Of a DNA stretch of 64,000 nucleotides, positions 14,278 to 62,648 are shown one piece after another. The stretch spans positions 35,240 through 99,239 of the forward strand of contig CANQOO010000003.1 in the NCBI GenBank assembly GCA_947625515.1, given 5' to 3'. Position 1 is the stretch's first letter. Each line of letters opens with the position of its first letter. The notes under the pieces were generated by a model, which was not told where the DNA came from, ran no database searches, and saw only the letters and a program-made list of their open reading frames with translations. The DNA comes from an uncultured Clostridia bacterium. GTDB lineage: Bacteria > Bacillota > Clostridia > Christensenellales > UBA1242. A program made the translations under genes and the position numbers.

Positions 14278-14367
14278 AGTCAACATATTGTGGTGGTATG
14301 CAGCATATCGAATTGCATAATACACCATATTTTGTAGGTGTTATGCAAATTTGTGTTATGCAAATTT
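14278..14367. repeat. Dispersed palindromic element copy 1 (paired NrdR-box-like 16-mers)
   Basis: AGTCAACATATTGTGG (14278-14293) and ACACCATATTTTGTAG (14322-14337) with TATGCA/TGCATA arms; 15-bp duplication GTGTTATGCAAATTT at the end. Confidence 0.8.
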
Positions 14368-14503
14368 GAAATTTTCAAAACGCAAAATGTCACACTTTAT
14401 TATTTTGTCAACTACGTCATACAATTTTGCGATTGTTGAGGATGTGCAATTCAAGAAAGTGATTGTGGGTTATATGTAAACCAGAAAGAGGGAGGATTTT
14501 TTT

Positions 14504-14866
14504 ATGGCAAACAGAATGGAAAGAGCCAACAGTGAAATTCAAAAGGCTCTGACGCAGATTGTTCAGACAAAAATGAACGACCCGCGACTTAATCAAATTG
14601 TCAGTTTCACAGAGGTTGACACCACGCCTGATTTTAAATATTGCAAGGTGAAGGTGAGTGTTTTGAATTTGGGAGAAATTTCAAATGTCACAAAAATCTT
14701 GCAAAAGAGCGAAGGGTTTATCAAACGCGAGCTTGCCAATATGGTGAAGATGCCGCAGGTGCCGAAAATCAACTTCGTTGTTGACAAAAGCACGCTCAGT
14801 GCAATCAGGGTGGAGGAAATTTTGCGGAACCTGAACATCCCAAAGGAGGACGGCGATGACCAGTGA
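14504..14866 (+). CDS. rbfA: Ribosome-binding factor A
   Basis: RMERANSEI, DPRL, TPDFKYCKV, VPKINFVVD. Confidence 0.93.
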   Translation: MANRMERANSEIQKALTQIVQTKMNDPRLNQIVSFTEVDTTPDFKYCKVKVSVLNLGEISNVTKILQKSEGFIKRELANMVKMPQVPKINFVVDKSTLSAIRVEEILRNLNIPKEDGDDQ

Positions 14867-16022
14867 AAAGTCCCTCAATTCAGTGAGACCGTCCAAAACA
14901 AGCAAAGCGAGAGTTTCGAGCGGCAAAACGGCAACTTCCAAACCTAAAAGAGAGAAAAAAGTAAAAAGTGCGGCTGCTTCCAAAAAAGTAGCAGCAAAAC
15001 TTGCTCTGGCAGGCAAGGCTCAAACTAGCAAGATGCAGAAAGACAGCAAGGCTCAAACAAAAAGCGAAAGGCTTTTTGACATTATCAAAAACGCCAAAAA
15101 AATTGCAATTTTCACCCATATCAATCCCGACCCAGACGCCTATGGCTCGGCGTTTGCGTTGCGTGATGCGTGCCGAAACATGGGAAAATTGGCAGATGTT
15201 TTTGCGGTGAAATGTGCTGACAGTTATTTGGACAAAATTTTTCCGCTGACGGAACTGAGAACAGATTTTCGTGCGGACGAATTTGATTTGGTGGCGATGG
15301 TTGACATCGGCGAGTTTTCGCGAGTGCATCAATCTTTCCAGGACGAAATTTCAAGGGCAAAAAAAATCATCATTTTTGACCATCATGTCCAGACGGAGCC
15401 TGTCGGAGAATTTCAACTTGTGGACGCAGGTCAGGCGGCATGTGCACAAGTTTTGACACATTTTTTTCTGGATAACAAAATTGAAATCACGCCAAAAATT
15501 GCCACCTATCTATGGACGGGGCTGATTGGCGACACGGGTAGATTTTTGTATGGAAATCTTTCGCATGATGTGCTGGATGTTGCACTGAAATTGTTTGACC
15601 ACGGGGCAGACACTCAGTTTGTGTATGACCAAATGTATCGCACAAATTCCTTGAAAGATATTGTCTTGCAGCAAAAATTTTTGGACAATACATATTTCAA
15701 CCAAGATAAGACTGCTGGGGTCACAATTTTCACCGCCAAGGATATGAAAAAATGGGGTGTTGACCACGATTTGATTAAGAAATATACCAACCTCATCATC
15801 AACATTGACGGCATCAAGGCCTCTTTCGTCGCCATTGAGCAAAGTCCAAACTTTTTCTCTATCAGCATCCGCACCTCTGGCAGAAATGCTCAAAAATTTG
15901 CCGTCATGCACGGCGGCGGTGGGCATGTTTGTGCATCAGGATTTAATTTTGAAGGCTCGAAAAGAAAACTTCGCAGGGTGGCACAAACTTGGTGCGATGA
16001 GCTTTTGCAAATTTACGTTTGA
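14856..16022 (+). CDS. DHH/DHHA1 phosphoesterase (NrnA-like) with Lys/Ser/Ala-rich N-terminal extension
   Basis: HINPDPDAYGS, FDHH, GLIGDTGRF, GGGGHVCASG. Confidence 0.9.
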   Translation: MTSEKSLNSVRPSKTSKARVSSGKTATSKPKREKKVKSAAASKKVAAKLALAGKAQTSKMQKDSKAQTKSERLFDIIKNAKKIAIFTHINPDPDAYGSAFALRDACRNMGKLADVFAVKCADSYLDKIFPLTELRTDFRADEFDLVAMVDIGEFSRVHQSFQDEISRAKKIIIFDHHVQTEPVGEFQLVDAGQAACAQVLTHFFLDNKIEITPKIATYLWTGLIGDTGRFLYGNLSHDVLDVALKLFDHGADTQFVYDQMYRTNSLKDIVLQQKFLDNTYFNQDKTAGVTIFTAKDMKKWGVDHDLIKKYTNLIINIDGIKASFVAIEQSPNFFSISIRTSGRNAQKFAVMHGGGGHVCASGFNFEGSKRKLRRVAQTWCDELLQIYV

Positions 16023-16166
16023 GTTTTGAGCTTTGTTTTTCAAAAATTCCTGAATGTCACTTCCCATGTGACGCTTTTTGAGGATTTTTTTAAACTTTTG
16101 GATGACATTCGCCGATAATTTGTATTGTAATGTGGGCGTAATTCGTGTAAAAACTTTTGGAGAAAA

Positions 16167-19736: not shown

Positions 19737-19738
19737 GA

Positions 19739-20934: not shown

Positions 20935-22746
20935 TTGAAAGACCTATCACATATCAGAAATTTTTGTATTATTGCACACATAGACCACGGCAAAAGCACG
21001 CTGGCAGACCGTTTGATTGAACTGACGGGGACCGTTTCCAAACGCGACATGCAGGACCAAATTCTGGACAGCATGGAATTGGAGAGGGAGAAGGGCATCA
21101 CCATCAAACTTGCTCCAACGCGGCTGGTGTATGAGCAGGACGGAAAGGAATATGTCCTCAACCTCATCGACACGCCGGGGCATGTTGACTTCACTTATGA
21201 AGTGTCGCGAAGTCTCGCTGCATGCGAGGGGGCACTGTTATTAGTGGACGCCTCTCAGGGGGTGGAGGCTCAGACGCTTGCAAACACATATCTTGCTTTG
21301 GACAACAATCTGGAAACCGTGCCGGTCATCAACAAAATTGACCTTCCTTCGGCTCGCGTTGACGAGGTGAAAGCGGAAATTGAAGAGGTGATTGGGCTGG
21401 ACGCCCACGATTGCCCGTGCATTTCCGCCAAGGACGGCACAAATGTTGAGGACGTTTTGAAGGCCATAATAGAAAAAATTCCTTCACCAAAAGGCGACGA
21501 CCAAAAGCCGCTTAAAGGGCTGATTTTCGACAGCCACTACGACAATTTTAAGGGGGCAATTTGCCTCATCCGCGTGTTTGATGGCACTGTGAAAGCCGGC
21601 GACAAAATTTTGATGATGCAAACAGGCAAACAGTTTGAGGTGACCGAGGTGGGCATTTTTGTGCCAAACACCAAACAGGTGGCACAGCTTTCTGCGGGAG
21701 ATGTGGGCTATATCGCCGCGTCAATCAAAACCATCGCGGACGTCAAGGTTGGCGACACAGTGACGTCGGCAGCCTGCCCGACAGAGAAGGCTCTGGAAGG
21801 ATATAAAGAGGTGCAGCCCGTGGTCTTTTGCGGCATTTTCACTGTGGACGGGGCAAAATATAATGACCTCAAAGACGCACTTGAAAAGTTGAAACTCAAT
21901 GACGCCAGTTTGAAATTTTCGCCGGAAGCTTCTGCGGCGTTGGGCTTTGGCTTTCGCTGCGGATTTTTGGGGCTGCTGCACCTTGAAATCATCACGGAAA
22001 GGCTGGAAAGAGAGTTTGATTTGGAAATCATCACCACCGCTCCAAGCGTGTCCTATCATGTTTTCAAGACAAACGGAGACATGCTGGAAATTTCCAATCC
22101 ATCCAATTTGCCTGCCCAGGTTGAAATTGACCGCATTGAAGAGCCGATTGTGCGGACAAGTATCTTCACTCCACCGGAATATGTCGGCTCAATCATGGAG
22201 TTGTGCCAAGACAAACGCGGGGTGTATAAAGACATGCAATATTTGGACAAGCAACGCGTGCAGTTGACATATATTTTGCCGCTGGGGGAAATTATTTATG
22301 ACTTTTTTGACAGCCTTAAATCCCGCACAAAGGGCTACGCAAGTTTTGACTATGAATTTGTTGGCTTTCAGCGAGCCGACCTTGTGAAAGTGGACCTGCT
22401 GCTTAATGGCGACAAGTGTGATGCACTTTCACTTATTGTGCATAAAGACAAAGCCTACACTCGCGGCAGAGAACTGACCGAACGCTTGAAAAAAATCATT
22501 CCGCATCAACTTTTTGAAGTGCCAATTCAGGCGTGCATCGGCAGTAAAATCATCGCCCGCGAAACAATTTCTGCCCTGAGAAAGGACGTGCTTGCGAAAT
22601 GCTATGGAGGCGACATAACAAGAAAACGCAAACTTTTGGAAAAGCAAAAAGAGGGCAAAAAGCGTATGCGAAAAATTGGCTCAGTGGAGATTCCGTCCGA
22701 GGCGTTTATGAGTATTTTGCGACTTGATGACGACAGCAACAAGTGA
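20935..22746 (+). CDS. lepA: Elongation factor 4
   Basis: [55 protein letters not shown]; TTG start after GGAG. Confidence 0.98.
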
Positions 22747-22754
22747 TGCTTTTG

Positions 22755-22819
22755 TGCATAACACCGCAATATGCATGGTGTTATGCATGCATAATACACC
22801 ATATTTTGTGTATTATGCA
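22755..22819. repeat. Dispersed palindromic element copy 2
   Basis: TGCATAACACC-N11-GGTGTTATGCA directly followed by TGCATAATACAC-CATATTTT-GTGTATTATGCA (perfect 11- and 12-bp arms). Confidence 0.9.
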
Positions 22820-22922
22820 AATAAAAAGTTTTTGGCCAAATATTTGGATTAGTTCATATTTGATGTTTGGAAGACAAAATTTTTGAGGCTATGAATTTTG
22901 GATGCTATTAAATTTGGAGGCT

Positions 22923-24026
22923 ATGAAAAAAGACATTTCAATTTATGTTCACATTCCTTTTTGCGAGAGAAAGTGCAAATATTGTGCTTTCAATTCTTTT
23001 TGTGCGACCGAGCATGAGAAGGAAGAATATATCGGCCTTTTATGCAGAGAGATTGAATCGCGTGCGAAAGATGTTTCACAAGAATATGCTGTGCGAACCA
23101 TCTATTTTGGCGGAGGAACGCCGAGCGTTTTAAGCCCTCAGCAATTTGAGCGGGTGACTTCCACAATTTTTGAGTGTTTTGATGTCTATGACAATGCGGA
23201 GTTCACTGTTGAGGCCAATCCCAGCAGCATCACTCCGGAAAAACTTGAAAAATGGAAGCAGTTGAGGGTGAATCGGCTCAGCATTGGCATTCAAACTTTA
23301 AAAGATAAATCGTTGGCACAAATTGGGCGTCTGCACTCTCGTGAAATGGCACTGGAAAAATTGAAATTGGCAAGAAAACTTTTTGACAATGTCTCTTGCG
23401 ACTTGATTGTTGGGCTGGAAGGACAAAGCGGCAAGCAAATCTGCGGCGAGGCGAAAGAACTTTTGTCGCTTGGCGTGAAACATATATCTTGCTATTTGCT
23501 GGAAGTTTATCCAAACACGCCGCTTTTTCATATGATTTCAAACGGGCAGTTTTCGCCTCTTTCGGACGAAGATGTTGTTGCGACATTCAACAAATTGGCG
23601 ACCTATTTGCAAGATGCCGGCATGCAAAGATATGAAATTTCCAATTTCGCTTTCCCGGGCTATGAAAGTCGCCATAATCTCAATTATTGGTCGCGAGGGG
23701 AATATCTGGGCTTTGGGATTTCCGCCCACTCTTTCTTGCATGGCAAGCGGACGGAAAATGCCGCAACGGTGGCAGATTATCGTGACGGCAAAGTGACGGC
23801 AGAAACGCTTTCGCCTCGCGAAGAAGACGAGGAAAAAATTATGCTGGGCTTGCGTTGCAACCTTGGTTTTCGTCTTTCAGATTTAAAAGCGATTGACCTT
23901 GAAAAAAATCCGTATTTTGCTGACTATCTTGGTCAGGGGATTTTGCGTCGCTCAGGCGGCGTAGTGACGCTTAATCCGCTTTTTTATCACCTCTCAAACA
24001 CTATAATTTCCAATTTGTTTGGGTGA
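22923..24026 (+). CDS. hemW: Radical SAM heme chaperone HemW (HemN-like)
   Basis: YVHIPFCERKCKYCAF, YFGGGTPS, YEISNF, HNLNYW; follows lepA. Confidence 0.9.
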   Translation: MKKDISIYVHIPFCERKCKYCAFNSFCATEHEKEEYIGLLCREIESRAKDVSQEYAVRTIYFGGGTPSVLSPQQFERVTSTIFECFDVYDNAEFTVEANPSSITPEKLEKWKQLRVNRLSIGIQTLKDKSLAQIGRLHSREMALEKLKLARKLFDNVSCDLIVGLEGQSGKQICGEAKELLSLGVKHISCYLLEVYPNTPLFHMISNGQFSPLSDEDVVATFNKLATYLQDAGMQRYEISNFAFPGYESRHNLNYWSRGEYLGFGISAHSFLHGKRTENAATVADYRDGKVTAETLSPREEDEEKIMLGLRCNLGFRLSDLKAIDLEKNPYFADYLGQGILRRSGGVVTLNPLFYHLSNTIISNLFG

Positions 24027-24282
24027 GTTTTTTGATTTAATTCATTATTCATGAGCAAGTAATTATTCATGAGCGAGATTTTGTTTTATTGATAATGTTT
24101 TTAAAAATACTGCATATGAACGGTGTGTTTTTTAAAATTTTTATTGCATTTGAATAAAATTTTCAATTTGCCAATTTTATTTTGCAAAATTGCTTGCTTT
24201 TTTAAATTTGATGTGATATAATCAGGTTTGTAAAGCGAAAATGCTTGACATTTATCTGCCGCATGGCTTAAAATGGTGGGCG

Positions 24283-24669
24283 ATGGCAAAGTTTCAACTG
24301 CAAGATTTTGTGCAATATGGTCAGATGTTTGAGGCTTATCGCTCTCTTTTGAGTGACGATAGACAGGCCATCATGGCGGATTATTTTGAGTTTAACGCAA
24401 CTCTGGCGGAAATTGCGGAAGAGCGAAAAATTTCCCGTCAAGCGGTGCTTGATGCCATCGAAAAGTCGTGTGAAAAGCTGCAAGGTTACGAAAACGCGTT
24501 GCATCTTGTGGCAAATCGCAGCAGGATTACGAAAGAGCTGAAAGACATCCATAAAATTTCAAGTGACGCCCTTGCGAAGGGTCACAGCACTGAAAATGCC
24601 TTGCCCGCACTTGAAACTACACTTGAAAAAATCTCTGAAAAAGTCGAAAACATTCTGAAAGAAATTTAA
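24283..24669 (+). CDS. ylxM: YlxM family SRP-associated HTH protein
   Basis: YRSLLSDDRQ..TLAEIAEERKISRQAVLD; directly upstream of ffh. Confidence 0.85.
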   Translation: MAKFQLQDFVQYGQMFEAYRSLLSDDRQAIMADYFEFNATLAEIAEERKISRQAVLDAIEKSCEKLQGYENALHLVANRSRITKELKDIHKISSDALAKGHSTENALPALETTLEKISEKVENILKEI

Positions 24670-24685
24670 ATCAGGAGGCTGAAAA

Positions 24686-25999
24686 GTGGCGATATTTTCT
24701 TCCTTATCCGAAAAATTTAATCACATCTTTTCAAAACTGACCAAACGTGGCAAGCTGACTGAATTGGAAATTAAAGAAGCAATGCGTGAAGTGCGAATTG
24801 CCCTTTTGGAGGCTGACGTCAACTATTTGGTTGCGAAAAAGTTTGTTGCGGATGTTTCAGAGAAGGCCATGGGCGAGGACGTTATGAAAAGTCTTACGCC
24901 GGGGCAAATGGTCATCAAAATTGTGCGTGACGAGCTGACAAAACTTATTTCGTCCGACAATCAAAAACTTGCCGTTTCGTCCAATCCTCCAACCGTCATC
25001 ATGATGTGCGGGTTGCAAGGTGCGGGCAAGACCACAATGTGCGGAAAACTTGCATATCATCTTAAAAAATCCGGCAAAAAACCTTTGCTCGTGGCGTGCG
25101 ACATATATCGACCTGCGGCAATCAACCAACTTCAAGTTGTGGGCAAAACGGCAAATGCCGAGGTGTTTGAACGCGGCACGCAAAACCCTGTTAAGACTGC
25201 AAAACAAGCCATTGAACATGCCAAGAAACAGGGCTTCGACACGGTGATTATCGACACCGCCGGGCGACTTCACATCAATCAAGAGTTGATGGAAGAGTTG
25301 AAAGAAATCAAAAAAGAAGTTCATCCGACCGAAATTTTGCTTGTTGTGGACTCAATGACTGGTCAGGACGCCGTCACCATCGCAGAAAGTTTCAACAACG
25401 ACCTCGACATTTCCGGCGTTGTGCTGACAAAACTGGACGGCGACACTCGCGGCGGTGCAGCACTTTCGATTAAGGCCATCACCGGCAAGCCAATCAAATT
25501 TTCTGGCGTTGGCGAAAAAATTGGCGACCTTGAACCGTTCTATCCAGACCGCATCGCCAGCCGAATTTTGGGGATGGGCGACGTATTATCGCTTATCGAG
25601 CGTGCCGAAGAGGTTGTCACCGAAGAACAAGCCAAAGAGATGCAGCAAAAACTTCGCGAAAATTCATTCACTTTTGAGGACTATCTTGTTCAAATGGAAA
25701 GTTTGAAGAAGATGGGCGGCATAAAGGATGTTTTGGGCATGATTCCGGGGCTTTCCGGCAAAATGAAAAACATCCAAATTGACGAAAAGCAACTGGAAGT
25801 GAACAAGGCAATCATCCAAAGCATGACGCGGGAAGAGCGGCTGAATCCGGACATCATTAAGGCAAGCCGCAGGAAAAGAATTGCGGACGGCAGCGGCACA
25901 AGCATTCAGCAAGTGAACTCGCTTTTGAAGCAGTTTGAGCAGAGCAAGGAAATGATGAAAATGCTTAAAGGTAAACGCGGCATGCGGGGAATGTTTTAA
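24686..25999 (+). CDS. ffh: Signal recognition particle protein
   Basis: GLQGAGKTT, DTAGRL, TKLDGDTRGGAALS, SRRKRIADGSG. Confidence 0.98.
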   Translation: MAIFSSLSEKFNHIFSKLTKRGKLTELEIKEAMREVRIALLEADVNYLVAKKFVADVSEKAMGEDVMKSLTPGQMVIKIVRDELTKLISSDNQKLAVSSNPPTVIMMCGLQGAGKTTMCGKLAYHLKKSGKKPLLVACDIYRPAAINQLQVVGKTANAEVFERGTQNPVKTAKQAIEHAKKQGFDTVIIDTAGRLHINQELMEELKEIKKEVHPTEILLVVDSMTGQDAVTIAESFNNDLDISGVVLTKLDGDTRGGAALSIKAITGKPIKFSGVGEKIGDLEPFYPDRIASRILGMGDVLSLIERAEEVVTEEQAKEMQQKLRENSFTFEDYLVQMESLKKMGGIKDVLGMIPGLSGKMKNIQIDEKQLEVNKAIIQSMTREERLNPDIIKASRRKRIADGSGTSIQQVNSLLKQFEQSKEMMKMLKGKRGMRGMF

Positions 26000-26240
26000 G
26001 AAAATATTGAAAAATTCGTGCAAACAAAGCGGAAAATTCGAATAAACAAATGCGAACATTTTCGAATGACGAAACATCCAAATCATAACATTCAAAACAA
26101 CTATGGGCGTTTGAAAATTTCATGACTAAATACATCACTGATATATCTCAAAACGCAAGTTTTGTTATATATACGAAAGAGACATCTTTGACATTTTCAA
26201 AAGACAAATCTTTCAAAAATCTAAAAAAGGAGAAAAGAAA

Positions 26241-26498
26241 ATGGCAGTCAAAATCAGACTTACAAGAATGGGAGACAAAAAAGCACCTTTCTATCGCGTT
26301 GTTGTCGCTGACAGCAGAAGCCCAAGAGATGGAAAATATATTGACCTTCTCGGGACATATAACCCTCTTACAAATCCTGCTGAAATCAAGATTGACAACG
26401 AAAAAGCAGCACAATGGCTTAAAAATGGTGCAACTCCAACAGAAACAGCAAAATCTGTGCTTGTAAAAAGCGGTGCAATCAAAACTGAGAACAAATAA
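26241..26498 (+). CDS. rpsP: 30S ribosomal protein S16
   Basis: [31 protein letters not shown]. Confidence 0.98.
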
Positions 26499-26556
26499 AG
26501 TCTTATTTGTTTTGCGTGTTGCACGGAAAATTATATCTTGAAAACAGGAGAAAATA

Positions 26557-26787
26557 ATGGAACAACTTCTGAAATTCCTTGTGGAAAGTTTGGTGGACGA
26601 CAAAAATGCCGTTCAAATTTCCAGAGAGGATGACGAAAGGTCGGTCACATTTCGCGTGAAGGTCGCTGAAAACGACATCGGCAAAGTGATTGGCAAAAAT
26701 GGCAAGACGGCAAACAGCATTCGCACAATACTCAAATCCGTCAGTGCCAGAGAACACAAAAAAATCTTTGTCAAATTTGAGGATTGA
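26557..26787 (+). CDS. khpA: KH-domain RNA-binding protein
   Basis: DIGKVIGKNGKTANSIRT; between rpsP and rimM. Confidence 0.9.
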   Translation: MEQLLKFLVESLVDDKNAVQISREDDERSVTFRVKVAENDIGKVIGKNGKTANSIRTILKSVSAREHKKIFVKFED

Positions 26788-26788
26788 C

Positions 26789-27304
26789 ATGACGCAAAAC
26801 GTGACGGATAATTTTGTTTACGTTGGAAAAATCATCAAACCGCAGGGCATCAAGGGCGAAGTTAAAATTTTGCCCGCAGTCGATATCCCTGCGATTTTTA
26901 ATGGCAAACATCCGCTTTTTGTGGAAAAAGTGGAGATGAAAATTCAGCATGCAAGTTTTCGCCTTGGATATGGCTATGTGAAGTTTGCAGAAATTGCTGA
27001 CCGAAATGCTGCGGAAAAATTTCGTGCGAAAAAAGTGTATATCACCCGCGACGAATTTAAAAAAGTGGCGTCCGACGACTTTCTGATTGACGAGCTTGTT
27101 GGCAGCGTGCTTTGCGATGAGAAAGGCGAGATGGTGGGGCAAATTATGGGCGTGACTGACTATGGCTTTGATGACATTCTCATCATCAAAGAGGACGGGA
27201 TTTTGTATGAAGTGCCGTTCCGCAAGGCGATTTTTCAGGTGCAAGATGGCACGCTCTCGGTCATCCGTGCGGAATATGAGGGTGCCAAGGTGGTGCAGGA
27301 ATGA
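26789..27304 (+). CDS. rimM: 16S rRNA processing protein RimM
   Basis: VGKIIKPQGIKGEVKI, DRNAAE, LVGSVL. Confidence 0.9.
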   Translation: MTQNVTDNFVYVGKIIKPQGIKGEVKILPAVDIPAIFNGKHPLFVEKVEMKIQHASFRLGYGYVKFAEIADRNAAEKFRAKKVYITRDEFKKVASDDFLIDELVGSVLCDEKGEMVGQIMGVTDYGFDDILIIKEDGILYEVPFRKAIFQVQDGTLSVIRAEYEGAKVVQE

Positions 27305-28224
27305 GGAAGGAGGAGCAAACTGGCATCACGGCGGGCGTGACTGATGCCGCTGACTCAAATGGAATGGTCGGCACCACGGGCATCACTGAAATGAGCGGCA
27401 GGTGTGGCACAATCGGCACAGGCAATGTGGCGGACACATGCGATATGGCTGGGGCAGTTGGAGTAGAAGTGACTGAAAAAACGCCGATGAGGATTGACAT
27501 TCTCACACTTTTTCCGGAAAGTTTCGCCCCACTGCAAACAAGCATTATTGGGCGAGCGGTGGAAAGAGGAACACTGAAAATAAACATTGTCAATATCCGA
27601 GATTTTTCCAAGGATAGACACAAAAAATGTGATGACACGCCATTTGGCGGTGGTGCTGGAATGCTTATGACAGTCCAGCCGATTTTTGACGCCATAAATT
27701 CGCTGCTCAGCGACGAGGAAAAAGACTTGCTGAAAAAAGAAGCGGAAAGGGGCGTGAAAAATAGAAAAAACAAGGATTCTTCCGTCAGAATAATCTTCCC
27801 TTCTCCGATTGGGCAGGTGCTGTCTGCAAAGAAAGCTGAGGCACTTTCAACATTCAAACACCTCATTTTTGTCTGCGGTCACTATGAAGGTGTGGACGAG
27901 CGGCTGTTTCAACTTTTTCCGATTGAGCAAATTTCAATCGGCGACTATGTTCTGACCGGCGGCGAATTGCCGACAATGGTGATTGCTGACTGTTTGTCCC
28001 GTTTTGTGGATGGAGTCATTTCACCGGAAAGTTTGGAGAGCGAAAGTTTCTCCAATGGGCTTTTGGAATATCCGCAATACACCAAGCCACGTGTTTTTCA
28101 AGGGCTGTCTGTGCCGGATGTTTTGCTGTCTGGCAATCACCAGGAGATTGACAAATGGAGAGAGGCCCAAAGCCTTAAACGCACGCAGGTGTTGCGTAAA
28201 GATTTGCTTAGGAAGAAGAAATAG
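27301..28224 (+). CDS. trmD: tRNA (guanine-37-N1)-methyltransferase; canonical start at 27487, possible 62-aa N-terminal extension
   Basis: MRIDILTLFPE, DDTPFGGGAGM, CGHYEGVDER, SIGDYVLTGGE, LLEYPQYT. Confidence 0.96.
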   Translation: MRKEEQTGITAGVTDAADSNGMVGTTGITEMSGRCGTIGTGNVADTCDMAGAVGVEVTEKTPMRIDILTLFPESFAPLQTSIIGRAVERGTLKINIVNIRDFSKDRHKKCDDTPFGGGAGMLMTVQPIFDAINSLLSDEEKDLLKKEAERGVKNRKNKDSSVRIIFPSPIGQVLSAKKAEALSTFKHLIFVCGHYEGVDERLFQLFPIEQISIGDYVLTGGELPTMVIADCLSRFVDGVISPESLESESFSNGLLEYPQYTKPRVFQGLSVPDVLLSGNHQEIDKWREAQSLKRTQVLRKDLLRKKK

Positions 28225-28246
28225 AAAGAGGCAACAAAATTTTAAT

Positions 28247-28304
28247 TGCACAATATGTGGTGTATTATGCACTGCATACTACGCTTTATATGGTGTATTA
28301 TGCA
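28247..28304. repeat. Dispersed palindromic element copy 3
   Basis: GCACAATATGTGGTGT-ATTATGCA-C-TGCATACT-ACGCTTTATATGGTGT-ATTATGCA; boxes 33 bp apart. Confidence 0.85.
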
Positions 28305-28468
28305 TTAAATTCTGCTTGTTCTTCTTGCATTTCGGACTTGGCAATGAATTTGAAAACATGCATTAAGAAAAGAGAAGTCTGGATGTGATAATTTAAAAAC
28401 GTGGCAAAATAAAATGAAAAAAATTCGGATTTGAGAAATTTAAAAAATGAAGAAAAAAGGAAAGAAAG

Positions 28469-29359
28469 ATGAAAATTAACTGGTTTCCAGGACATATGAA
28501 TAAGGCGTTGAAGGACATTGGAGAAGAATTGAAAAAAGTTGATGTGGTCACCTATGTTCTTGACGCACGCATTCCAATTTCGTCCTTCAATCCAAGTCTG
28601 GACAAACTTACCGAAAACAAGCCAGTTTTGTATGTTCTTAATAAGATTGACATGGCAGACGAAGCGAAAGTCAAAAAGTTTTTGCCGAGTTTTTCTGGAA
28701 AATCACGCGATTTTGTGCTTTACAACAGCACTCTTTCTGGCAAAAGTGACGCAATTTTGGCGAAAATTAAGAAACTGGCGAGCGAAAAAATTGAGAAATA
28801 CCGTGCCAAAGGCGTGAAAGCGACCGTTCGCACTATGGTTGTCGGCATCCCGAACTGTGGCAAAAGCACCCTCGTCAACAATTTGTGTCGGAAGGCCAAG
28901 ACCATGACAGGTGACCGTGCGGGCGTAACAAAACGCGGGCAGTGGGTGAGTGTTGGCGACTGCATTGAGGTGTATGACACGCCGGGAACGCTGTATCCAA
29001 ACATCGCCAATCAGGACATTGCGAAAAAACTGGCATATGTAGGCAGCGTGCGGGACGAGATTTTGGATTTTGTGGAACTTGGTGCAGAATTTGTGGGTTG
29101 CATAAACAAAACCTATCCAAATGTTTTGGAAAAACGCTACGGAATTGACCTTTCAAAAGCGGATAATTTAAATCCTCAGCTTGATGAAATTGAAAATTCG
29201 ATTGAAGAAATTGAAAATCCGAACTTTCAAACTTTGGCTAAAATTGCAAAAATAAGAAAGTTTGTTTCAAACGGTGGCGAATTTGACATCGAACGTGCGG
29301 GCAGAAGTTTGATTGACGATTTTCGCAAAGGTCGTCTTGGCAGGTTGACTTTGGATTAA
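28469..29359 (+). CDS. rbgA: Ribosome biogenesis GTPase RbgA/YlqF
   Basis: INWFPGHM, DARIP, NKID, GIPNCGKST, DTPG, DFRKGRLG. Confidence 0.96.
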   Translation: MKINWFPGHMNKALKDIGEELKKVDVVTYVLDARIPISSFNPSLDKLTENKPVLYVLNKIDMADEAKVKKFLPSFSGKSRDFVLYNSTLSGKSDAILAKIKKLASEKIEKYRAKGVKATVRTMVVGIPNCGKSTLVNNLCRKAKTMTGDRAGVTKRGQWVSVGDCIEVYDTPGTLYPNIANQDIAKKLAYVGSVRDEILDFVELGAEFVGCINKTYPNVLEKRYGIDLSKADNLNPQLDEIENSIEEIENPNFQTLAKIAKIRKFVSNGGEFDIERAGRSLIDDFRKGRLGRLTLD

Positions 29360-29553
29360 AATGCGGCTGAAACTTTTCAAAGCATGTTCAAAATGGGCAT
29401 ATTCAAGGTGGGCAGGCTTATTAGAAAGCAAAAAATTTATGCAGTAAATATTCGAACAACAATGTTTAAAATTTAATTAAATTTTGCGTTTAATTTCTTA
29501 TTTTGCAATGCGGAATTTCGTTCGTTTATATAACAAATTCATGGGGGATTGAG

Positions 29554-29925
29554 ATGGATAATCCTTACACAAAAGATCTGGCTAAAATGCGGAACAAAAT
29601 TGAGGGCGACATGGGTGAAACGCGTGCCGTCCAATTTTTGCGTGGGAAGGGTTATCGCATTTTGCAGACAAACTATAAGACCAAATTTGGCGAGATTGAT
29701 ATCATTGCCCAGGACGGCAAGGTGATTGTTTTTGTGGAGGTTAAAGAGCGGGCGACGCTTGCGTATGGGCGGCCGATTGAGGCGGTGAACTTTCAAAAAC
29801 AGCAGAAAATCAGGCGGGTGGCAGAGTTTTATCTTATGATGAAGCACAGCCCCTACGCGGACTGCCGCTTCGACGTTATTGAAATTCTTGGCGACAGCAT
29901 TAATCACGAAACCAACGCTTTCTGA
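29554..29925 (+). CDS. YraN family (UPF0102) nuclease-like protein
   Basis: GEIDIIA..VFVEVKER and RFDVIEI. Confidence 0.9.
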   Translation: MDNPYTKDLAKMRNKIEGDMGETRAVQFLRGKGYRILQTNYKTKFGEIDIIAQDGKVIVFVEVKERATLAYGRPIEAVNFQKQQKIRRVAEFYLMMKHSPYADCRFDVIEILGDSINHETNAF

Positions 29926-30131
29926 GAAGATGCGTCCTCAAATTTTATGTTAACATTTCAAAAATTCATATTTTTATGTCCTGAGCTACATATTTTTTCA
30001 CTGATTTTCAAATTCGTATCATATTTTCTTTTGTTTGAGAATTTACAAGCCAATTTTTTAAGGATGTTTCTGGAGATAAATTTGTTTTTATCTTTTTTTA
30101 ATAAATTTCTTAAAAAACTTTGCAAAAAGTC

Positions 30132-30329
30132 TTGCTTTTCCAATTTCGAGTGTGCTATAATGATGAGGACTTCGGGTGTTCCGCTGGGTTGTTCGCGAAA
30201 TTTTTTGCAGATATTGCCTCTTGGGGCGTCTGAAATTCGCAAAGTCCAATGGATGCAACTTTTGGATTCAACTTTGAAAATCCATGGTCAAATAATTTTG
30301 GACAGAAACCTTATGAGCATCATGTCGAA
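30132..30329 (+). promoter_or_regulatory. rplS promoter and L19-leader-like RNA with expanded interior
   Basis: TTGCTT-18-TATAAT with extended-10 TG; GGTGTTCCGCTG (30175-30186) can pair with GAGCATC (30315-30321). Confidence 0.6.
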
Positions 30330-30353
30330 AATCTGAAAAAAGGAGATAAGTCA

Positions 30354-30701
30354 ATGGCAAATTTAATCGACCAACTTGAACGCGAAGGCATGAAAGAAAC
30401 AATTCCTTCATTCGCAATCGGTGACACTGTGAAAGTGACAGTTCGCATCAAAGAAGGCGACAAAGAAAGATTGCAGGCTTTTGAAGGCGTTGTCATTTCA
30501 AGAAAGAACGGCGGAATTCGCGAAACCTTCACCGTAAGAAAAATTTCCTACGGCGTTGGCGTGGAAAAAACTTTCCCAATTCATTCACCAAAAATCGCTT
30601 CAATTGAAGTGGTGAGAAAAGGTCGTCCAAGAAGAGCAAAACTCTATTATGTTCGTGACCTCACCGGAAAGGCTGCAAAAGTTAAATCCGCTGAAAACTA
30701 A
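30354..30701 (+). CDS. rplS: 50S ribosomal protein L19
   Basis: [42 protein letters not shown]. Confidence 0.98.
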
Positions 30702-30723
30702 TTCGCACAGTTTAAGAAAAGAT

Positions 30724-30751
30724 AAGAGAGCGTTTTCGCTTTCTTTTTTTT
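30724..30751 (+). terminator. Intrinsic terminator after rplS
   Basis: AAGAGAGCG-TTTT-CGCTTTCTT followed by a T-run. Confidence 0.7.
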
Positions 30752-30832
30752 GTTTTAATTTTTAACGAATTTTCTTGTTAAAAATTTTAAATTTCTTGAC
30801 AAATTTGACCTTAAATGTGATATTATATGAAT

Positions 30833-31741
30833 ATGAAAAAAAGTTTTGACATTTTGATTATCGGCGGCGGGGTGGCTGGCATGAGTGCGGCGATTTATGC
30901 CAAACGAAGGGGAAAGAATGTCTGCATCATCGAAAAATTTACGCTGGGCGGGCAGGTGAACACCATTCCAAAAATTGAGAATTTTCCGTCAGAGGTTTCC
31001 ATTGACGGCATCAGTCTTGTGCAGAATTTTGCTATGCAAATTGAGCGTCTGGGCGTGGAAGTGATTTATGACGACGTCCAAAAAGTGGACTATTCCGGCG
31101 AGACAAAGCGAGTTTTTGGGCGTGAGGATGAATATGAGGCAAAAAGCGTCATCCTTGCGACAGGGCTGACATATGTGGAATTGGGCAAAAATGAGAATGA
31201 CTTTTTGGGTCGCGGCGTCAGTTATTGTGCCGTGTGCGACGCCAATTTTTTCCGTGGGAAAGATGTTTGCGTGGCAAGTGCAAGGGGCAGCGGCTTGAAG
31301 GAAGCACTTGTGCTGGCAGAGGTGTGCAGCCACGTGACGGTGCTTGACAGCGGGGATATGTCTGCTTATGCGAGTGCCAACAAAAACAAGAAAATTGATG
31401 TGCTTTCCAATGTCCAAATTGAAAAAGTTGTTGGAAAAGACGCGGTAGAGGGCGTTGAAATTTCAATTTTGAAAGCTCAAAAAGTGGGAAATGGCAAAAC
31501 GAAAACAGAACATGAAAAAAGAATTTTGAAAACCACCGCTCTTTTTGTGGCACTTGGGAAAAAACCGGATAACACCGTTTTTGGCGGGGTGAAGGTGGAC
31601 GCAAAGGGATTTGTCATCACCAACGAAAAAATGCAAACATCCATAGATGGCGTGTTTGCCGTGGGCGATGTGAGAAGCAAAGAACTTAAACAAATTGTCA
31701 CCGCTTGCAGCGATGGTGCCATTGCAGGACAGTTTGCATAA
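30833..31741 (+). CDS. trxB: Thioredoxin-disulfide reductase
   Basis: IIGGGVAG, GRGVSYCAVCD, GVFAVGDV, QIVTACSDGAIA. Confidence 0.9.
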   Translation: MKKSFDILIIGGGVAGMSAAIYAKRRGKNVCIIEKFTLGGQVNTIPKIENFPSEVSIDGISLVQNFAMQIERLGVEVIYDDVQKVDYSGETKRVFGREDEYEAKSVILATGLTYVELGKNENDFLGRGVSYCAVCDANFFRGKDVCVASARGSGLKEALVLAEVCSHVTVLDSGDMSAYASANKNKKIDVLSNVQIEKVVGKDAVEGVEISILKAQKVGNGKTKTEHEKRILKTTALFVALGKKPDNTVFGGVKVDAKGFVITNEKMQTSIDGVFAVGDVRSKELKQIVTACSDGAIAGQFA

Positions 31742-31815
31742 CACCACAATATATGGTGTATTATGCAATGCATAATACACTCTATGTTGATTATCGATAT
31801 ATTTTGTGCTATGCA
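31735..31815. repeat. Dispersed palindromic element copy 4 (overlaps the trxB stop)
   Basis: TGCATAACACCACAATATATGGTGTATTATGCA-A-TGCATAATACACTCTATGTTGATT...TATGCA; boxes at 31744 and 31777. Confidence 0.9.
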
Positions 31816-32121: not shown

Positions 32122-32148
32122 AGAATCCTTCGCTCCCTCAGGATGACA
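32122..32148 (-). repeat. Single copy of a GTCATCCTGAG...GCGAAGGAT REP-like motif
   Basis: Minus strand TGTCATCCTGAGGGAGCGAAGGATTCT resembles a widespread short intergenic repeat; recognised from memory only. Confidence 0.45.
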
Positions 32149-36978: not shown

Positions 36979-37036
36979 TACATATCACCACAATATAAGG
37001 TGTATTATGCATGCATACCACCGCAACATGTGGAAT
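36979..37036. repeat. Dispersed palindromic element copy 5
   Basis: CCACAATATAAGGTGT-ATTATGCA-TGCATACCA-CCGCAACATGTGGAAT; boxes 33 bp apart. Confidence 0.85.
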
Positions 37037-37250
37037 TTTTAAAAATAATAAAAATCATGCAATTTAAAAATAATCGGAAAAATTAAGAAAAAAAATAACA
37101 AAAAATGCAGTCAAAAACTTGGAAATAAAATTGGCAAAAAATACAAAATTGAAAACAAAATCGAAATGAAATAAGAAAATTTGATAAATCAATAATGAAT
37201 GGGGAAAATCAAAATAAATTGGACAAAATATTAGGAATAAAGGAGCGAGA

Positions 37251-43341: not shown

Positions 43342-44424
<1,083 letters not shown>

Positions 44425-48071: not shown

Positions 48072-48338
48072 GCTGGGCGGATGCTTTGTTGCAAAATGAC
48101 CGACTGCCTTGAAAGTGCCAAACTCCACCAAAGCTTCCTTATGGCACATCAACTGGTTCCCTTAGTGATGCTTCCGTCAGGACCTGACACGATTCGGAAA
48201 GGCCGATTGCACAAGACCTTGATTTCATCGCCTGGAACTTTCACACATATTCAACCAAATTGCACCGAGGCAACTGTTCGACCCTGCTGTAGCGGATTGC
48301 AGGTGACAGGGCACCGCTATCTCCCCGTCTAGCCCAGT
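48072..48338 (-). ncRNA. ffs: Large bacterial SRP RNA (scRNA, with Alu domain)
   Basis: 5' CTGGGCTAGACGGGGAGATAGCGGTGCCCTGTCACCTGCAATCCGCTA; domain IV GTCAGGTCCTGACGGAAGCA; 3' GCCCAG pairs with the 5' end. Confidence 0.92.
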
Positions 48339-58986: not shown

Positions 58987-59166
58987 AACTGTGTTGAAAA
59001 AGACTGCTTGAAATAAAAACTTCTTAAAATTATATGAAAAAATACAAAGCTTATCACTCAAACGAGGCGACAAGACCTTATTAAGAAGTTGAAAAATTAA
59101 ACACGCGTATTTTACGAAAATGCACTCTAAATTGGAATAGAAAAACAATAATCACTTCACAAATCT

Positions 59167-59230
59167 TGCATACTACACTATAAGTGGTGTAGTATGCTGC
59201 ATAATAGGCACAATATATGGGATTTTATGT
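59167..59230. repeat. Dispersed palindromic element copy 6
   Basis: GCATACTACAC-TATAAGTG-GTGTAGTATGC (perfect 11-bp arms) then TGCATAATAGGCACAATATATGGGAT; boxes 33 bp apart. Confidence 0.85.
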
Positions 59231-59433
59231 GATTGTGTTTTTTTTGTTTTGTTTCATTTTTGTATCGTTTTTTTGTTTCATTGAAATGTGGTTTGATAAG
59301 TTAAAGATAAAAATTTCTCACACAAATTTTTATTAAACTGCTTCTTTGTTTCATTTATCAAATTAATTTTGGTCTAGCGGAATTTGTCTTATTAATATGT
59401 CCTATTTTTTGTGATGGAAAAATATAATATGAT

Positions 59434-60865: not shown

Positions 60866-61060
60866 ATGCCTAAACAAAAAACACACAGCGGCGTAAAGAA
60901 AAGATTTTCACTCACCGCAACAGGGAAAGTCAAGTATGCAAGACCAGGCAAGGGTCATTTCTTGACAGCCAAAAACAAAAGTCGTAAAAGAAAGCTTCGC
61001 AAGGGCTCTTACATCAATGGGAAGAACACCCAAAACATCAAGACCTTGCTTGCAAAGTAA
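60866..61060 (+). CDS. rpmI: 50S ribosomal protein L35
   Basis: MPKQKTHSGVKKRF. Confidence 0.96.
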   Translation: MPKQKTHSGVKKRFSLTATGKVKYARPGKGHFLTAKNKSRKRKLRKGSYINGKNTQNIKTLLAK

Positions 61061-61079
61061 GTGAATAGGAGAGTGCAAC

Positions 61080-61427
61080 ATGAGAATTAAAAGAGGCGTA
61101 AACGCAGTTAAAAAACGCAGAAAAATTTTAAAGCAAGCCAAAGGATACTTTGGTGCAAAGAGCAAACTCTATCGCACCGCACGCGAACAGGTGATGAAGA
61201 GTGGGCAATATGCTTACATCGGCAGAAAACAAAAGAAAAGAAACTTCCGTGCACTTTGGATCACCCGCATCAATGCAGGTTGCCACGCCAACGACATTTC
61301 TTATTCACGTTTCATCAGCGGCTTGAAAAAAGCAAATGTCAACCTCAACCGCAAAGTTTTGGCTGATATGGCTGTTCGTGAGCCAGCAGCGTTTGCAGAG
61401 CTTGTTGCAGTTGCAAAAAAGGCATAA
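61080..61427 (+). CDS. rplT: 50S ribosomal protein L20
   Basis: [27 protein letters not shown]. Confidence 0.97.
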
Positions 61428-61658
61428 CTTTTGCCTATGGCTTCGGGGGAAATTTTTCTCAAAAGATTTCTATGATTTTCTATACAAGAAGTTCTTTCAT
61501 AGATTATTCAAAACATTTTCCCGTCACAACTTTGCCTGATGCGTTGATATTTGTCAGCGTCACTTTGCAAAAAAACGTCATGTTTCAAAATTATGACAGG
61601 CTGCGAAAAGCTTTTGCATAGATTATGATTGGCTCATGCATACATGAGGAGTAGAATT

Positions 61659-62648
61659 TTGGAAAAAGCAAGCAAAAATTTCATATCCAACCTGAAAAAG
61701 CAAAAACGAGAAAACAAGTCTTTGCTTTTTTTGGATAACATCAAAATCATCAAGGACGCACTTTCAAACAAAACAATTTTGCCAAAATGCATCCTGACAA
61801 GCCTGGACGAAGAGGCGTTTGATGCACTTGAAATTCTGCCAAACACTTTCAGACGTGCAGCTTTTGGCAATGCGTCAGGACAAGCAAATGGACAAAGTGA
61901 CGGCACAAAAGCGGGGCGAATGAAAAGCGTCGTTTCAGAAGCCGTGCATTCAAAAAATGTTGACCCAAAAACTGAGCAGACTTGCAAGGCTCAAAACATT
62001 TCGTTTACAAAGCAAAGGGGTGAGCCTCAGAGCCTTTCGCAGGGACTTTCGTTTGAGGAGCAAATTCGTCTGATTGAACAGAGCGACGACTTGCCAATTT
62101 TTCGCGTTGACGAAAAAACAATCGAGCAACTTGCAGACACAAAAACACCACAGAAAGTATTATGCATTGCATACTACACACAACATCTTGTGGATATTCC
62201 AAAACACAACTTTCTTGTGCTGGATGGCTTGCAAGACCCGGGAAATGTTGGCACGCTCATCCGAACCGCGAAGGCAAGCGGCTTTGAGGATGTCATTCTG
62301 GTGGAGTGCGTTCGCAAAAACAACGAAAAGCTTATTCGAAGTTCGGTTGGGGCAGTGCTTTCCAGCAATGTTATGGAGATGAGGCGACAAGAATTTGTCG
62401 AATTCGCCACCAAGAATGCTCTCAATCTTATCTGCTGCGACATGGATGGGCAAAGCATTTTTTCCTTTCAGCCGCAGGGGCGAGTTGGCGTTGTTGTTGG
62501 CAGCGAAGGACAGGGCGTCAGCAAGGAAATCCGCTCGCTTTGCCGTCACATGGTGAAAATTCCAATGTGCGAGGGGATTGAAAGTTTAAACGCTGGCGTC
62601 AGCGGCAGCATAATTATGTATGAAATAAACAAGAACAAATTTAATTAA
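61659..62648 (+). CDS. TrmH/SpoU family RNA methyltransferase with ~80-aa insertion
   Basis: LDGLQDPGNVGTLIRTA, GSEGQG, IPM..ESLNAGVS; TTG start after GAGGAG. Confidence 0.9.
   Translation: MEKASKNFISNLKKQKRENKSLLFLDNIKIIKDALSNKTILPKCILTSLDEEAFDALEILPNTFRRAAFGNASGQANGQSDGTKAGRMKSVVSEAVHSKNVDPKTEQTCKAQNISFTKQRGEPQSLSQGLSFEEQIRLIEQSDDLPIFRVDEKTIEQLADTKTPQKVLCIAYYTQHLVDIPKHNFLVLDGLQDPGNVGTLIRTAKASGFEDVILVECVRKNNEKLIRSSVGAVLSSNVMEMRRQEFVEFATKNALNLICCDMDGQSIFSFQPQGRVGVVVGSEGQGVSKEIRSLCRHMVKIPMCEGIESLNAGVSGSIIMYEINKNKFN
62145..62197. repeat. Dispersed palindromic element copy 7 (inside the TrmH CDS)
   Basis: ACACCACAGAAAGTAT-TATGCA-T-TGCATACTAC-ACACAACATCTTGTGG; boxes 33 bp apart. Confidence 0.7.

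Follow-up and report, generated by a model that had tools for sequence, protein, structure and literature searches.

Copies of a short paired DNA element are confined to roughly ±100–150 kb around the replication terminus and its dif site in a genus of small-genome gut Clostridia, whose species keep the array at corresponding positions. The clustering of the copies at the end point of replication suggests a new way of marking the terminus region. The element has a definite sequence anatomy, its two halves are held in helical phase, and the host genome encodes the regulator NrdR, whose operator boxes the halves resemble. We place about even weight on the reading that the array consists of double-stranded protein-binding sites that mark the terminus domain and are most likely bound by NrdR. 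To our knowledge there is no terminus-domain site array on record in Clostridia, and none was found in the literature searched.

The window is a stretch of 64,000 nucleotides on contig C3 of the source genome (G000; assembly of 1.11 Mb, 80.67% complete), and window coordinates are C3 coordinates minus 35239.

Anatomy and phasing of the element

Each element comprises two 16-bp NrdR-type boxes around a palindromic linker, GTATTATGCA-(0–2 nt)-TGCATAMTAC. An nhmmer profile, used to map copies in the window and in the G000 assembly, recovered the same seven copies that a preliminary description of the window had listed, with starts agreeing to 1–2 nt and no additional copy in the window (Table 1). 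With at most one mismatch allowed, the 12-mer TGCATAMTACAC has 13 matches in the window where 0.20 would be expected, a count that 0 of 100 shuffles reached; 12 of these matches fall inside the seven copies, and the match at 43507 stands alone. The outer arms are absent from about half of the copies, and the copy at 22754..22822 has both. The linker palindrome is conserved better than the boxes, with invariant columns in GT-TA-G..CATA-A. That the linker and not the boxes is best conserved speaks against NrdR as the binder, and reading of the linker sequence by NrdR is not known.

Table 1. Element copies in the window, with profile E-values and box pairs scored with the NrdR matrix
Coordinates	Strand	Context	nhmmer E	Box-pair start	Offset (bp)	Box scores (bits)
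14280..14350	.	92 nt downstream of infB, upstream of rbfA; centre 11 nt longer	9.9e-6	14278 (second box 14322)	44	12.5 + 14.9 (sum 27.3)
22754..22822	.	8 nt past lepA stop codon, 80 nt before hemW	3.4e-14	22764	32	3.9 + 16.9
28245..28305	.	21 nt past trmD stop codon, upstream of ylqF	1.7e-15	28248	33	15.2 + 10.7
31734..31794	.	overlaps stop codon of trxB-like gene	1.1e-13	31744	33	18.5 + 6.7
36980..37039	.	110 nt past obgE, between convergent genes	3.3e-13	36988	33	13.5 + 7.1
59166..59232	.	180 nt past proS	6.9e-12	59175	33	11.5 + 13.6
62146..62203	.	within RlmB-like methyltransferase coding sequence, aa 173–192, between two domains	1e-8	62145	33	5.3 + 16.6

The spacings first described for the window (33 bp in five copies, about 32 in one and 44 in another) were reproduced by box pairs called with the matrix, the offset of 32 belonging to the pair at 22764 and that of 44 to the pair at 14278. 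Among the 22 copies of G000 the offset is 33 in 13, 32 in four, 31 in one, 44 in one and odd in three. Over five terminus contigs the pairs are likewise phased, at 31 (20 pairs), 32 (11), 33 (29) and 43–44 bp (13), with no other offset seen more than three times, and the 43–44 bp offset goes with a centre that is one helical turn longer.

The copies are mostly intergenic, often 0–25 nt past stop codons, and where the flanking genes run in tandem, 60–200 nt usually separate the element from the start codon of the gene that follows. The genes upstream of six window copies are those originally named, encoding IF-2, LepA, TrmD, a thioredoxin-reductase-like protein, ObgE and ProS; only the trxB call is softened to trxB-like (254 bits, under the cut-off of 343). 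The intragenic site was placed by protein alignment with the ortholog in the congener G003, and the RlmB-like ortholog in G002 also contains an element.

The claim that the arms co-vary while staying complementary did not hold. We compared a one-hairpin and a two-hairpin covariation model, and in neither did pairing or covariation exceed column shuffles: pairing was 72.7% versus 74.9% in shuffles (481 of 500 at least as high) and, for the second model, 68.2% versus 69.7% (457 of 500). An A/C position is paired in only 5 of 21 copies, and the element had no match in Rfam. An intrinsic-terminator scan of window positions 22000–37500 flagged one of four elements, its total of 16 lying under the shuffle mean of 20.3. 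A sigma-70 scan of four elements flagged no promoter formed by the hexamers of the element; two weak minus-strand matches (9 of 12) adjoin two of these four, and the total for the region is 23 versus 23.5 in shuffles.

Confinement around dif and conservation across the genus

The preliminary description envisaged a genome-wide array, and here the mapped copies disagree. Contig C3 is 14% of the G000 assembly, yet it holds 18 of the 22 copies, all between 22 and 144 kb (a 122-kb span by nhmmer). The cumulative GC-skew maximum falls at C3:109825, and one copy occupies C3 109746–109811. A search for the dif-like sequence TTCGCAAAAGACAGGTTTTACGCA, with at most three mismatches, found it in 37 of 61 genus genomes, 36 of which carry just one copy; the controls gave 0 hits. 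The distance from this site to the skew maximum is 27–135 bp in five genomes, and the dif contig, with a 0.14–0.25 share of the assembly, carries 18/22, 18/19, 20/22, 18/19 and 13/16 of the copies (binomial P 1e-7 to 2e-12). A dif-adjacent copy is present in 9 of 9 congeners examined, 5–29 nt from dif; G000 and four congeners share a collinear dif flank, and the first box begins 5 nt past the 24-nt dif core in G000, G003, G067 and G008.

An XerS-like recombinase is present, and the dif-like site is a difSL-like palindrome with a 6-bp centre, single-copy and separate from the element. The element itself was considered as the Xer core site and rejected: its CATAA/TTATG arms either abut in the wrong order or stand 18 bp apart, and the separate site fills the dif role. 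What survives of the tyrosine-recombinase likeness noted at the outset is that one copy sits 5 nt from an XerS-type site in fixed register; the element is no recombination site.

Positional conservation extends well beyond dif. On contig C1 of G003, 14 of the 17 element-bearing gaps have an element-bearing ortholog in G000, despite proteins that are only about 55–95% identical between the two, and G003 has orthologous copies for 28245..28305, 31734..31794, 36980..37039 and 59166..59232. One such gap is occupied in three distant congeners too, and two copies are kept inside coding sequences across species. Copy number varies by species from 0 to about 22, with gaps gained and lost. Similarity between orthologous copies is only a little higher than between non-orthologous ones (0.775 versus 0.732). 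Each genome has its own consensus, and that of the linker is clade-specific at orthologous sites, a pattern that needs either concerted evolution or another factor evolving along with the sites.

NrdR as the candidate binder

The presence of nrdR, on which the original suggestion of NrdR sites depended, is established: G000 has a single, canonical gene (TIGR00244, 199.5 bits) whose product reads MKCIYCGHEESKVLDSR...IRRRRECLNCGRRF and keeps CxxC, D15, R17 and RRRR, residues whose roles (zinc ribbon, D15/R17, RRRR) are named in PMC9110341, which also describes NrdR–DNA contacts at the boxes. The gene was found in 60 of 61 genus genomes. In G000 the only genes with an ATP-cone are nrdR (contig C9) and nrdD (contig C6), and the nrdD operator has two boxes 32 bp apart.

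The resemblance to NrdR boxes was upheld by an independent matrix, trained on nrdD upstream regions from 30 genomes of other families, on which the best pairs score up to 42 bits and shuffles at most 13. The boxes of G000's own nrdD operator score 16.0 and 14.0 bits, the top element box 19.5; the best element pairs reach 31.8 and 30.6 bits, and that operator 30.0; 17 of 22 elements score at least 19 bits, and 19 of the 34 G000 boxes of at least 14 bits fall in elements. On contig C1 of G067, 18 of 18 matches of at least 19 bits at offsets 31–33 lie inside elements. The fit to a whole operator is looser. Offset 33 is commonest in elements, while nrdD operators of other families prefer 31 (8/30) and 32 (16/30), with 33 in 4/30, and a model of boxes plus linker built from 25 operators found 1 of 22 G000 elements at E ≤ 0.01; in the window this model ranks the seven elements at the top, but at 8.9–13.7 bits and mostly as single-box local matches.

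Element copies do not stand at nrd or nrdR promoters, lying instead after infB, lepA, trmD, the trxB-like gene, obgE and proS or within coding sequences. NrdR-type pairs do occur upstream of nrdR and in the dnaA–dnaN gap, the latter site being a pair in three of five congeners and a single box in one of five. In E. coli and P. aeruginosa, paired NrdR boxes are reported only at RNR operons (bioRxiv 10.1101/2025.03.28.645925).

We would view the element as a double-stranded-DNA site, neither an RNA hairpin nor a recently mobile repeat, in which two boxes 31–33 bp apart, or 43–44 bp with the one-turn-longer centre, would be read together. Some 15–22 such predicted sites per genome surround dif, one in fixed register beside its core, and their most likely binder would be the genome's single canonical NrdR. 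A dATP/ATP-loaded NrdR tetramer clamps two boxes three helical turns apart and kinks the DNA at each. When dATP rises, as replication slows or is finished, NrdR may load onto the terminus domain and the flank of dif and fold them, which might organise the domain, gate dimer resolution of the XerS type, or both. As a titrating sink, the array could in addition draw NrdR away from its sites at nrdD, nrdR and dnaA–dnaN.

We offer only tentatively the fuller proposal that this genus has turned NrdR into a terminus-domain protein gated by nucleotides. Through about 20 phased, dif-centred double operators, one of them in register with the dif core, and sites at dnaA–dnaN, the cell's dATP/ATP state would fold or bridge the domain, license XerS-type resolution and, by titration, time nrd expression to the replication cycle. 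It would be a MatP-like system made from a metabolic repressor. If NrdR does bind, a sensor of the dATP/ATP ratio would be coupled physically to the terminus, its dif site and the origin region, and dNTP supply would be linked, directly and testably, to the completion of replication and to chromosome segregation in a gut bacterium with a minimal genome. Should the binder be another protein, the array is a new terminus-domain motif that can serve as bait for it; with either binder, the element can be used at once to recognise the terminus by sequence in fragmented assemblies of this lineage.

Other readings and known systems

It is worth considering other ways in which such an array could arise. 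The best placed of them, which we hold to be possible but a minority view, is that a different terminus-specific protein, an analogue of MatP/matS or of an Xer accessory factor, reads the central palindrome GTATTATG..CATAATAC, the NrdR-like boxes being either incidental or a further layer that some members of the genus added. The conservation of the linker and its shift by clade at orthologous sites point this way, as do several GTATTATG-type octamers flanking dif and the dif-adjacent copies of the distant congeners G006, G011, G047 and G055, which consist only of GGGGTATTATG-N-CATAATACCC, with no NrdR-like box and pair scores of -3.0 to 6.7, which also tells against NrdR as the binder. GTAKTATG octamers outside elements, moreover, number 24 and 4 against 57 and 42 expected, by a crude base-composition estimate. 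This reading has no candidate protein, however: models for MatP (PF06303) and RTP had no match in the 80.67%-complete G000, and a small RHH ORF beside dif is G000-specific. It also leaves unexplained why the flanks match the NrdR matrix at operator level and are phased at 31–33 and 43–44 bp.

A repeat of the REP or MITE kind, selfish or neutral, that arose from an nrd operator-promoter, spread locally near the terminus and persists without function, is in our view unlikely. The element is indeed a short, imperfect, mostly intergenic palindrome, often right after stop codons, with a copy number, gap turnover and genome-specific consensus that a repeat family could produce, and by eye its half-site, with TATAAT/TATTAT after a box, is like the promoter-operator of nrdD. 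The REP-like alternative raised in the preliminary description keeps that much, but it is weakened because no Y1/RAYT transposase gene was found in G000 (PF01797; 80.67% complete), hairpin covariation and an Rfam match are lacking, the copies are not dispersed but held in one chromosomal domain in five genomes, and gaps are shared as orthologs between species with diverged proteins. Such a repeat would further have to keep a fixed register beside dif, helical phase when the centre lengthens, and two copies within coding sequences across species.

A conventional but enlarged NrdR regulon, each site repressing a neighbouring promoter or blocking read-through of its housekeeping operon, seems distinctly improbable to us. 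It would share the box evidence given for NrdR above, and the distances to the next start codon and the pairs near nrdR and dnaA–dnaN are what it would predict; many copies, however, lie within known operons (infB–rbfA) or between convergent genes and two in coding sequence, no promoter was flagged on the hexamers of the four scanned elements, and regulation of unrelated genes does not explain terminus confinement or the copy by dif. Least probable is action in RNA, as 3′-UTR hairpins that terminate transcription or stabilise mRNA, for which palindromic sequences just past stop codons would be suited but which is opposed by the missing compensatory covariation, by stems without the G+C-rich/T-run form and few terminator calls, by the loss of the outer arms that two hairpins need, and by restriction to the vicinity of dif of hairpins that would be required genome-wide.

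Among known systems, the array is like REP/BIME sequences in that its imperfect palindromes are short, lie mainly between genes, and often come in pairs and behind stop codons, and it differs in having no RAYT gene found, no dispersal, no stem covariation and positions conserved across species. With NrdR operators it shares 16-bp palindromic boxes with a conserved C and G 9 bp apart, pairing of the boxes at about three helical turns, and matrix scores equal to those of the genome's own nrdD operator. It departs from them in lying away from nrd genes and within the terminus domain, in having about 20 copies instead of 1–3, in an offset mostly of 33 rather than 31–32 with a weak match to the whole-operator model, and in a conserved palindromic linker that true operators lack.

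In E. coli, matS sites and MatP mark the Ter macrodomain. MatP is described as a Ter-specific factor in PMC8669397. As there, a few tens of short palindromes occupy a terminus-centred domain of roughly 15–20% of the chromosome, some of them near dif; unlike matS, a 13-bp single palindrome, the element is a double site of 50–70 bp, of unrelated sequence and in another phylum. The plasmid Xer sites cer and psi, of about 180 bp, use the accessory proteins ArgR, PepA and ArcA. Like their accessory sequences, the dif-adjacent element would place a site for a DNA-bending multimeric regulator, here a predicted one, at a fixed short distance from an Xer core; unlike them, it is chromosomal, has a difSL-like palindrome as its neighbour and an XerS-like recombinase in the same genome, and is repeated about 20 times over the domain.

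Organization and distribution of the element

As judged by reading of the sequence, all seven places in the window carry one element family, with the core [ACACAAAATATGGTGT]ATTATGCA-(0-2 nt)-TGCATAMT[ACACCATATTTTGTGT]; outer arms (TGCATAAY.../...RTTATGCAAA) often extend the core to a total palindrome of 50-70 bp and are absent from about half of the copies. With at most one mismatch allowed, the 12-mer TGCATAMTACAC is present at 13 places in the window, where 0.20 are expected; 0 of 100 shuffles reached this number, and 12 of the 13 occurrences are inside the seven copies. Scored with the NrdR matrix described below, the copies have the offsets (distances between the starts of paired boxes) that the preliminary description reported, namely 33 in five copies, 32 in one and 44 in one, and the genes it placed upstream of six copies were confirmed as those for IF-2, LepA, TrmD, a thioredoxin-reductase-like protein, ObgE and ProS. 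The seventh copy lies within an RlmB-like coding sequence. Likewise, a copy on contig C1 lies within a gene for a PBP5-like D-Ala-D-Ala carboxypeptidase, where it codes for a portion of the hydrophobic signal-peptide region, and the ortholog of this gene in the congener G067 also holds a copy. Outside the elements, the octamers GTATTATG (24 observed, 57 expected) and GTAGTATG (4 observed, 42 expected) are rare in the source genome, G000, by a crude mononucleotide expectation; this rarity may mean that the motif is avoided elsewhere in the genome.

The window corresponds to C3:35240-99239 of the G000 assembly (1.11 Mb, 11 contigs, 43% G+C, 80.67% completeness), in which an nhmmer profile finds 22 copies: 18 on C3 at 22-144 kb, three within the final 54 kb of C1 and one on C5, with none on the remaining eight contigs. 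This speaks against the genome-wide array that had first been proposed as one reading. The contig that carries the dif-like site holds 18 of 22 copies in G000, 18 of 19 in G003, 20 of 22 in G067, 18 of 19 in G070 and 13 of 16 in G008; these contigs make up 14-25% of each genome, and the binomial P for enrichment is 1e-7 to 2e-12 across the five genomes. Measured from dif, the copies span -87 to +34 kb (G000), -57 to +77 kb (G003), -84 to +98 kb (G067), -110 to +144 kb (G070) and -117 to +31 kb (G008), and in each genome the contig reaches beyond the outermost copies on at least one side. Synteny between G003 and G000 points to the end of C1 and the start of C3 being neighbours in G000, and the three C1 copies therefore probably belong to the same terminus domain.

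Coordinates of the element copies, NrdR-type boxes and neighbouring features discussed in the text (contigs of G000 unless stated)
Feature	Position	Strand	Remarks
Element copy at skew switch	C3:109746-109811
Dif-like palindrome TTCGCAAAA-GACAGG-TTTTACGCA	C3:109724-109747 (would be window 74485-74508, outside the window)		directly beside an element copy
RHH-like ORF, 48 aa	C3:109534-109680		directly upstream of dif
Tyrosine recombinase, only full-length one in G000	C3:127473-128567	+	364 aa; best match XerS, 177 bits (cut-off 267)
Element copy after XerS-like gene	C3:128687
Element copy in PBP5-like gene	C1:302256-302321
Element copy in ortholog of PBP5-like gene	G067:C1:13850-13913
NrdR-type pair upstream of nrdR	C9:19669-19716		23.5 bits, offset 32
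NrdR-type pair in dnaA-dnaN gap	C7:22869-22917		24.8 bits, offset 32
Single NrdR-type boxes ACACAATATCTTGTGA, three identical	C1:299044; C1:300782; C9:11142		17.9 bits each
Best single NrdR-type box of G000	C5:79719		20.2 bits, within an ORF
Outer arm GTGTTATGCAAATTT, tandemly doubled	window 14338-14368		right side of infB-proximal copy
Doubled TATTATGCAAA, similar	C3:109797-109830		right side of dif-adjacent copy
Bacterial large SRP RNA (Rfam RF01854)	window 48073-48337	-	147.8 bits

Likeness to NrdR operators

The boxes had been likened to the sites of NrdR, a repressor that senses dATP/ATP, and G000 has the nrdR gene in a single copy on C9 (199.5 bits). Its product retains the cysteines of the zinc ribbon together with D15, R17 and the RRRR motif that a published study links to DNA contact (PMC9110341). 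Upstream of nrdD, the one ribonucleotide reductase (RNR) gene, on C6, is ACACCATATGTTGTGA-16 nt-ACACTATACATGGTGT, overlapping TTGACT-18-TATAAT. The NrdR matrix (consensus ACACAATATATTGTGT) was derived from the regions upstream of nrdD in 30 genomes belonging to other families; the two G000 nrdD boxes served only as its seed, and the final matrix comprises foreign sites alone. Offsets in the 30 foreign regions are 31 in 8, 32 in 16, 33 in 4 and 30 in 2, and the best pairs reach up to 42 bits, compared with at most 13 in shuffles.

Applied to G000, this matrix bears out the resemblance: the two top pairs of the genome are elements, at 31.8 and 30.6 bits, followed by the nrdD operator at 30.0. 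Moreover, 17 of 22 elements score at least 19 bits, and 19 of the 34 boxes of at least 14 bits lie inside elements. When both boxes of a pair must have at least 6 bits, offsets 31, 32 and 33 hold 5, 7 and 14 pairs, and the other offsets from 16 to 59 hold 0-4 each. Over the five terminus contigs, the offsets are 31 (20 pairs), 32 (11), 33 (29), 34 (3) and 43-44 (13), with at most 3 pairs at any other. The second class, at 43-44, indicates that copies with a longer centre keep helical phase, and the offset geometry fits a phased double site.

NrdR-type pairs also occur at two other loci. One, about 90-140 nt upstream of nrdR, probably reflects autoregulation. The other lies between dnaA and dnaN, next to TTATCCACA DnaA boxes; three congeners (G006, G070 and G008) have a pair at the corresponding site, G003 has one perfect box of 21.8 bits there, and in G067 the contig stops after 598 nt. 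In this genus, the origin region or the dnaN promoter may be a further target of NrdR.

The dif-like site and the terminus domain

On C3, the GC skew turns from + to - near 110 kb (cumulative maximum 109825), and an element copy sits at this switch, beside a dif-like 24-mer that in G000 is embedded in a longer palindrome. With at most 3 mismatches, the 24-mer is found in 37 of 61 genus genomes, in single copy in 36 and twice in G052; a reversed control gave 0 hits. It lies 90 bp (G000), 27 bp (G003), 135 bp (G067), 39 bp (G070) and 94 bp (G008) from the cumulative skew maximum and, like difSL, is of the AAAA-N6-TTTT type. From its form, its single copy and its position, we read the 24-mer as a putative difSL-type dif. 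The XerS-like gene is 18 kb away and is followed by a further element copy. FtsK with a gamma domain is present, and neither RTP nor MatP has a match in the 80.67% complete G000.

In all nine genomes of the genus examined (G000, G003, G067, G070, G008, G006, G011, G047 and G055), a model match or box pair lies no more than 30 nt from dif. Four congeners share a collinear dif flank with G000, and the first box begins 5 nt past the 24-nt dif core in G000, G003, G067 and G008. The RHH-like ORF upstream of dif was considered as the source of a binder and rejected, as it lacks conservation in both G003:C1 and G067:C1. A polar fork trap was also rejected: the orientation of the A/C variant does not switch at dif in G000, G067 or G008, and in G003 one orientation predominates, on one side only.

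The most likely reading, to which we give an even chance, is that the copies form a terminus-domain array of double sites to which NrdR would bind when dATP is high. Such binding would offer a means of folding the terminus domain or of controlling dif/XerS, and the array could also titrate NrdR.

Other explanations and known systems

Some properties of the element point beyond NrdR alone. Specifically, linker columns GT.TA.G...CATA..A are invariant, unlike the linker of nrdD operators, which is without conservation. Distant congeners have a shorter linker, TATTATG-N-CATAATA, and the linker form is common to all copies of one genome, even at orthologous gaps. In G006, G011, G047 and G055, the dif-adjacent copies have the central palindrome and no box (pair scores -3.0 to 6.7); the dispersed copies have at least one strong box, and four have two at offsets 31-33. 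A whole-operator model built from nrdD operators (R2) is insensitive to the elements, recovering 1 of 22 in G000, and when the window is searched without filtering, the seven elements rank first among its matches, at 8.9-13.7 bits and mostly by a single box. In 40 other genomes of the order, R2 gives mostly 1-6 matches per genome, with outliers in G035 (11) and in the 1.6 Mb G031, of another family (17; all counts on both strands); in the latter, NrdR-type paired sites may have expanded independently. Taken together, the invariant linker, the box-less copies at dif and the weak R2 matches imply either that a second factor reads the linker, or that gene conversion homogenises it, or that it has a role in DNA shape. 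The second most likely reading, on the unlikely side, is that some other protein specific to the terminus recognises the central palindrome; it would suit the box-less copies.

A REP-like relic is doubtful. A covariance model built on the G000 copies, using sequence only, has matches in 58 of 61 genus genomes (E <= 0.01), with 0 to about 45 per genome (both strands counted), and none (E <= 0.001) in 59 genomes that represent 41 other families of the order; the exact core is found mostly in records of gut MAGs that bear the titles uncultured Clostridia, Candidatus Caccovivens or Catabacter. G003:C1 is syntenic with C3 of G000, with proteins roughly 55-95% identical, and 14 of its 17 element-bearing gaps match element-bearing gaps of G000. 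A copy occupies the gap that separates the orthologs of C1:252476-252844 and C1:253068-253814 not only in G000 but also in the distant congeners G055, G047 and G002, and the intragenic rlmB-like copy is found again in G002. There is also turnover, in that some element-bearing gaps of G000 are only 19-26 nt in G003. Identity is 0.775 between orthologous and 0.732 between paralogous copies, a contrast too weak to show vertical descent, so that this argument rests on positional orthology. A RAYT-type (Y1) transposase gene, suggested as a possible companion, was not found in G000 (80.67% complete). The conserved gaps, the recurrence in distant congeners and the lack of Y1/RAYT favour long-standing sites that have stayed in place over ones that are currently mobile.

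A classical enlarged regulon, with the copies as operators of nearby genes, is improbable. A promoter TTGCAT-18-TATTAT around each box, modelled on analogy with the nrdD promoter, was rejected: a sigma-70 scan of window 22000-37500 contained no such promoter, and two weak 9-of-12 minus-strand matches adjoin two of four elements in a count equal to that of shuffles. Least credible are RNA hairpins, as the arm co-variation with retained complementarity first claimed exceeds column shuffles in neither model of the 21-copy alignment (single long hairpin, 72.7% of cells paired versus 74.9%, with 481 of 500 shuffles at least as high; right-hand hairpin of a two-hairpin model, 68.2% versus 69.7%, 457 of 500), and the arms are paired at their A/C position in 5 of 21 copies. 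The palindromy thus reflects the fit of each half to a consensus, as expected of a symmetric site for a protein, and not selection for base pairing. A terminator scan of window 22000-37500 gave nothing above shuffles, and the elements match no Rfam family.

It is informative to set the element beside known systems. A search of openly accessible literature brought up no account of a terminus with NrdR-type sites or of such a repeat in this lineage. According to a 2025 preprint, paired NrdR boxes of E. coli and P. aeruginosa are at RNR operons only (bioRxiv 10.1101/2025.03.28.645925). The element lacks the promoter context that defines RNR operators and is therefore outside that class; it is like the NrdR operator in sequence and like matS in distribution.
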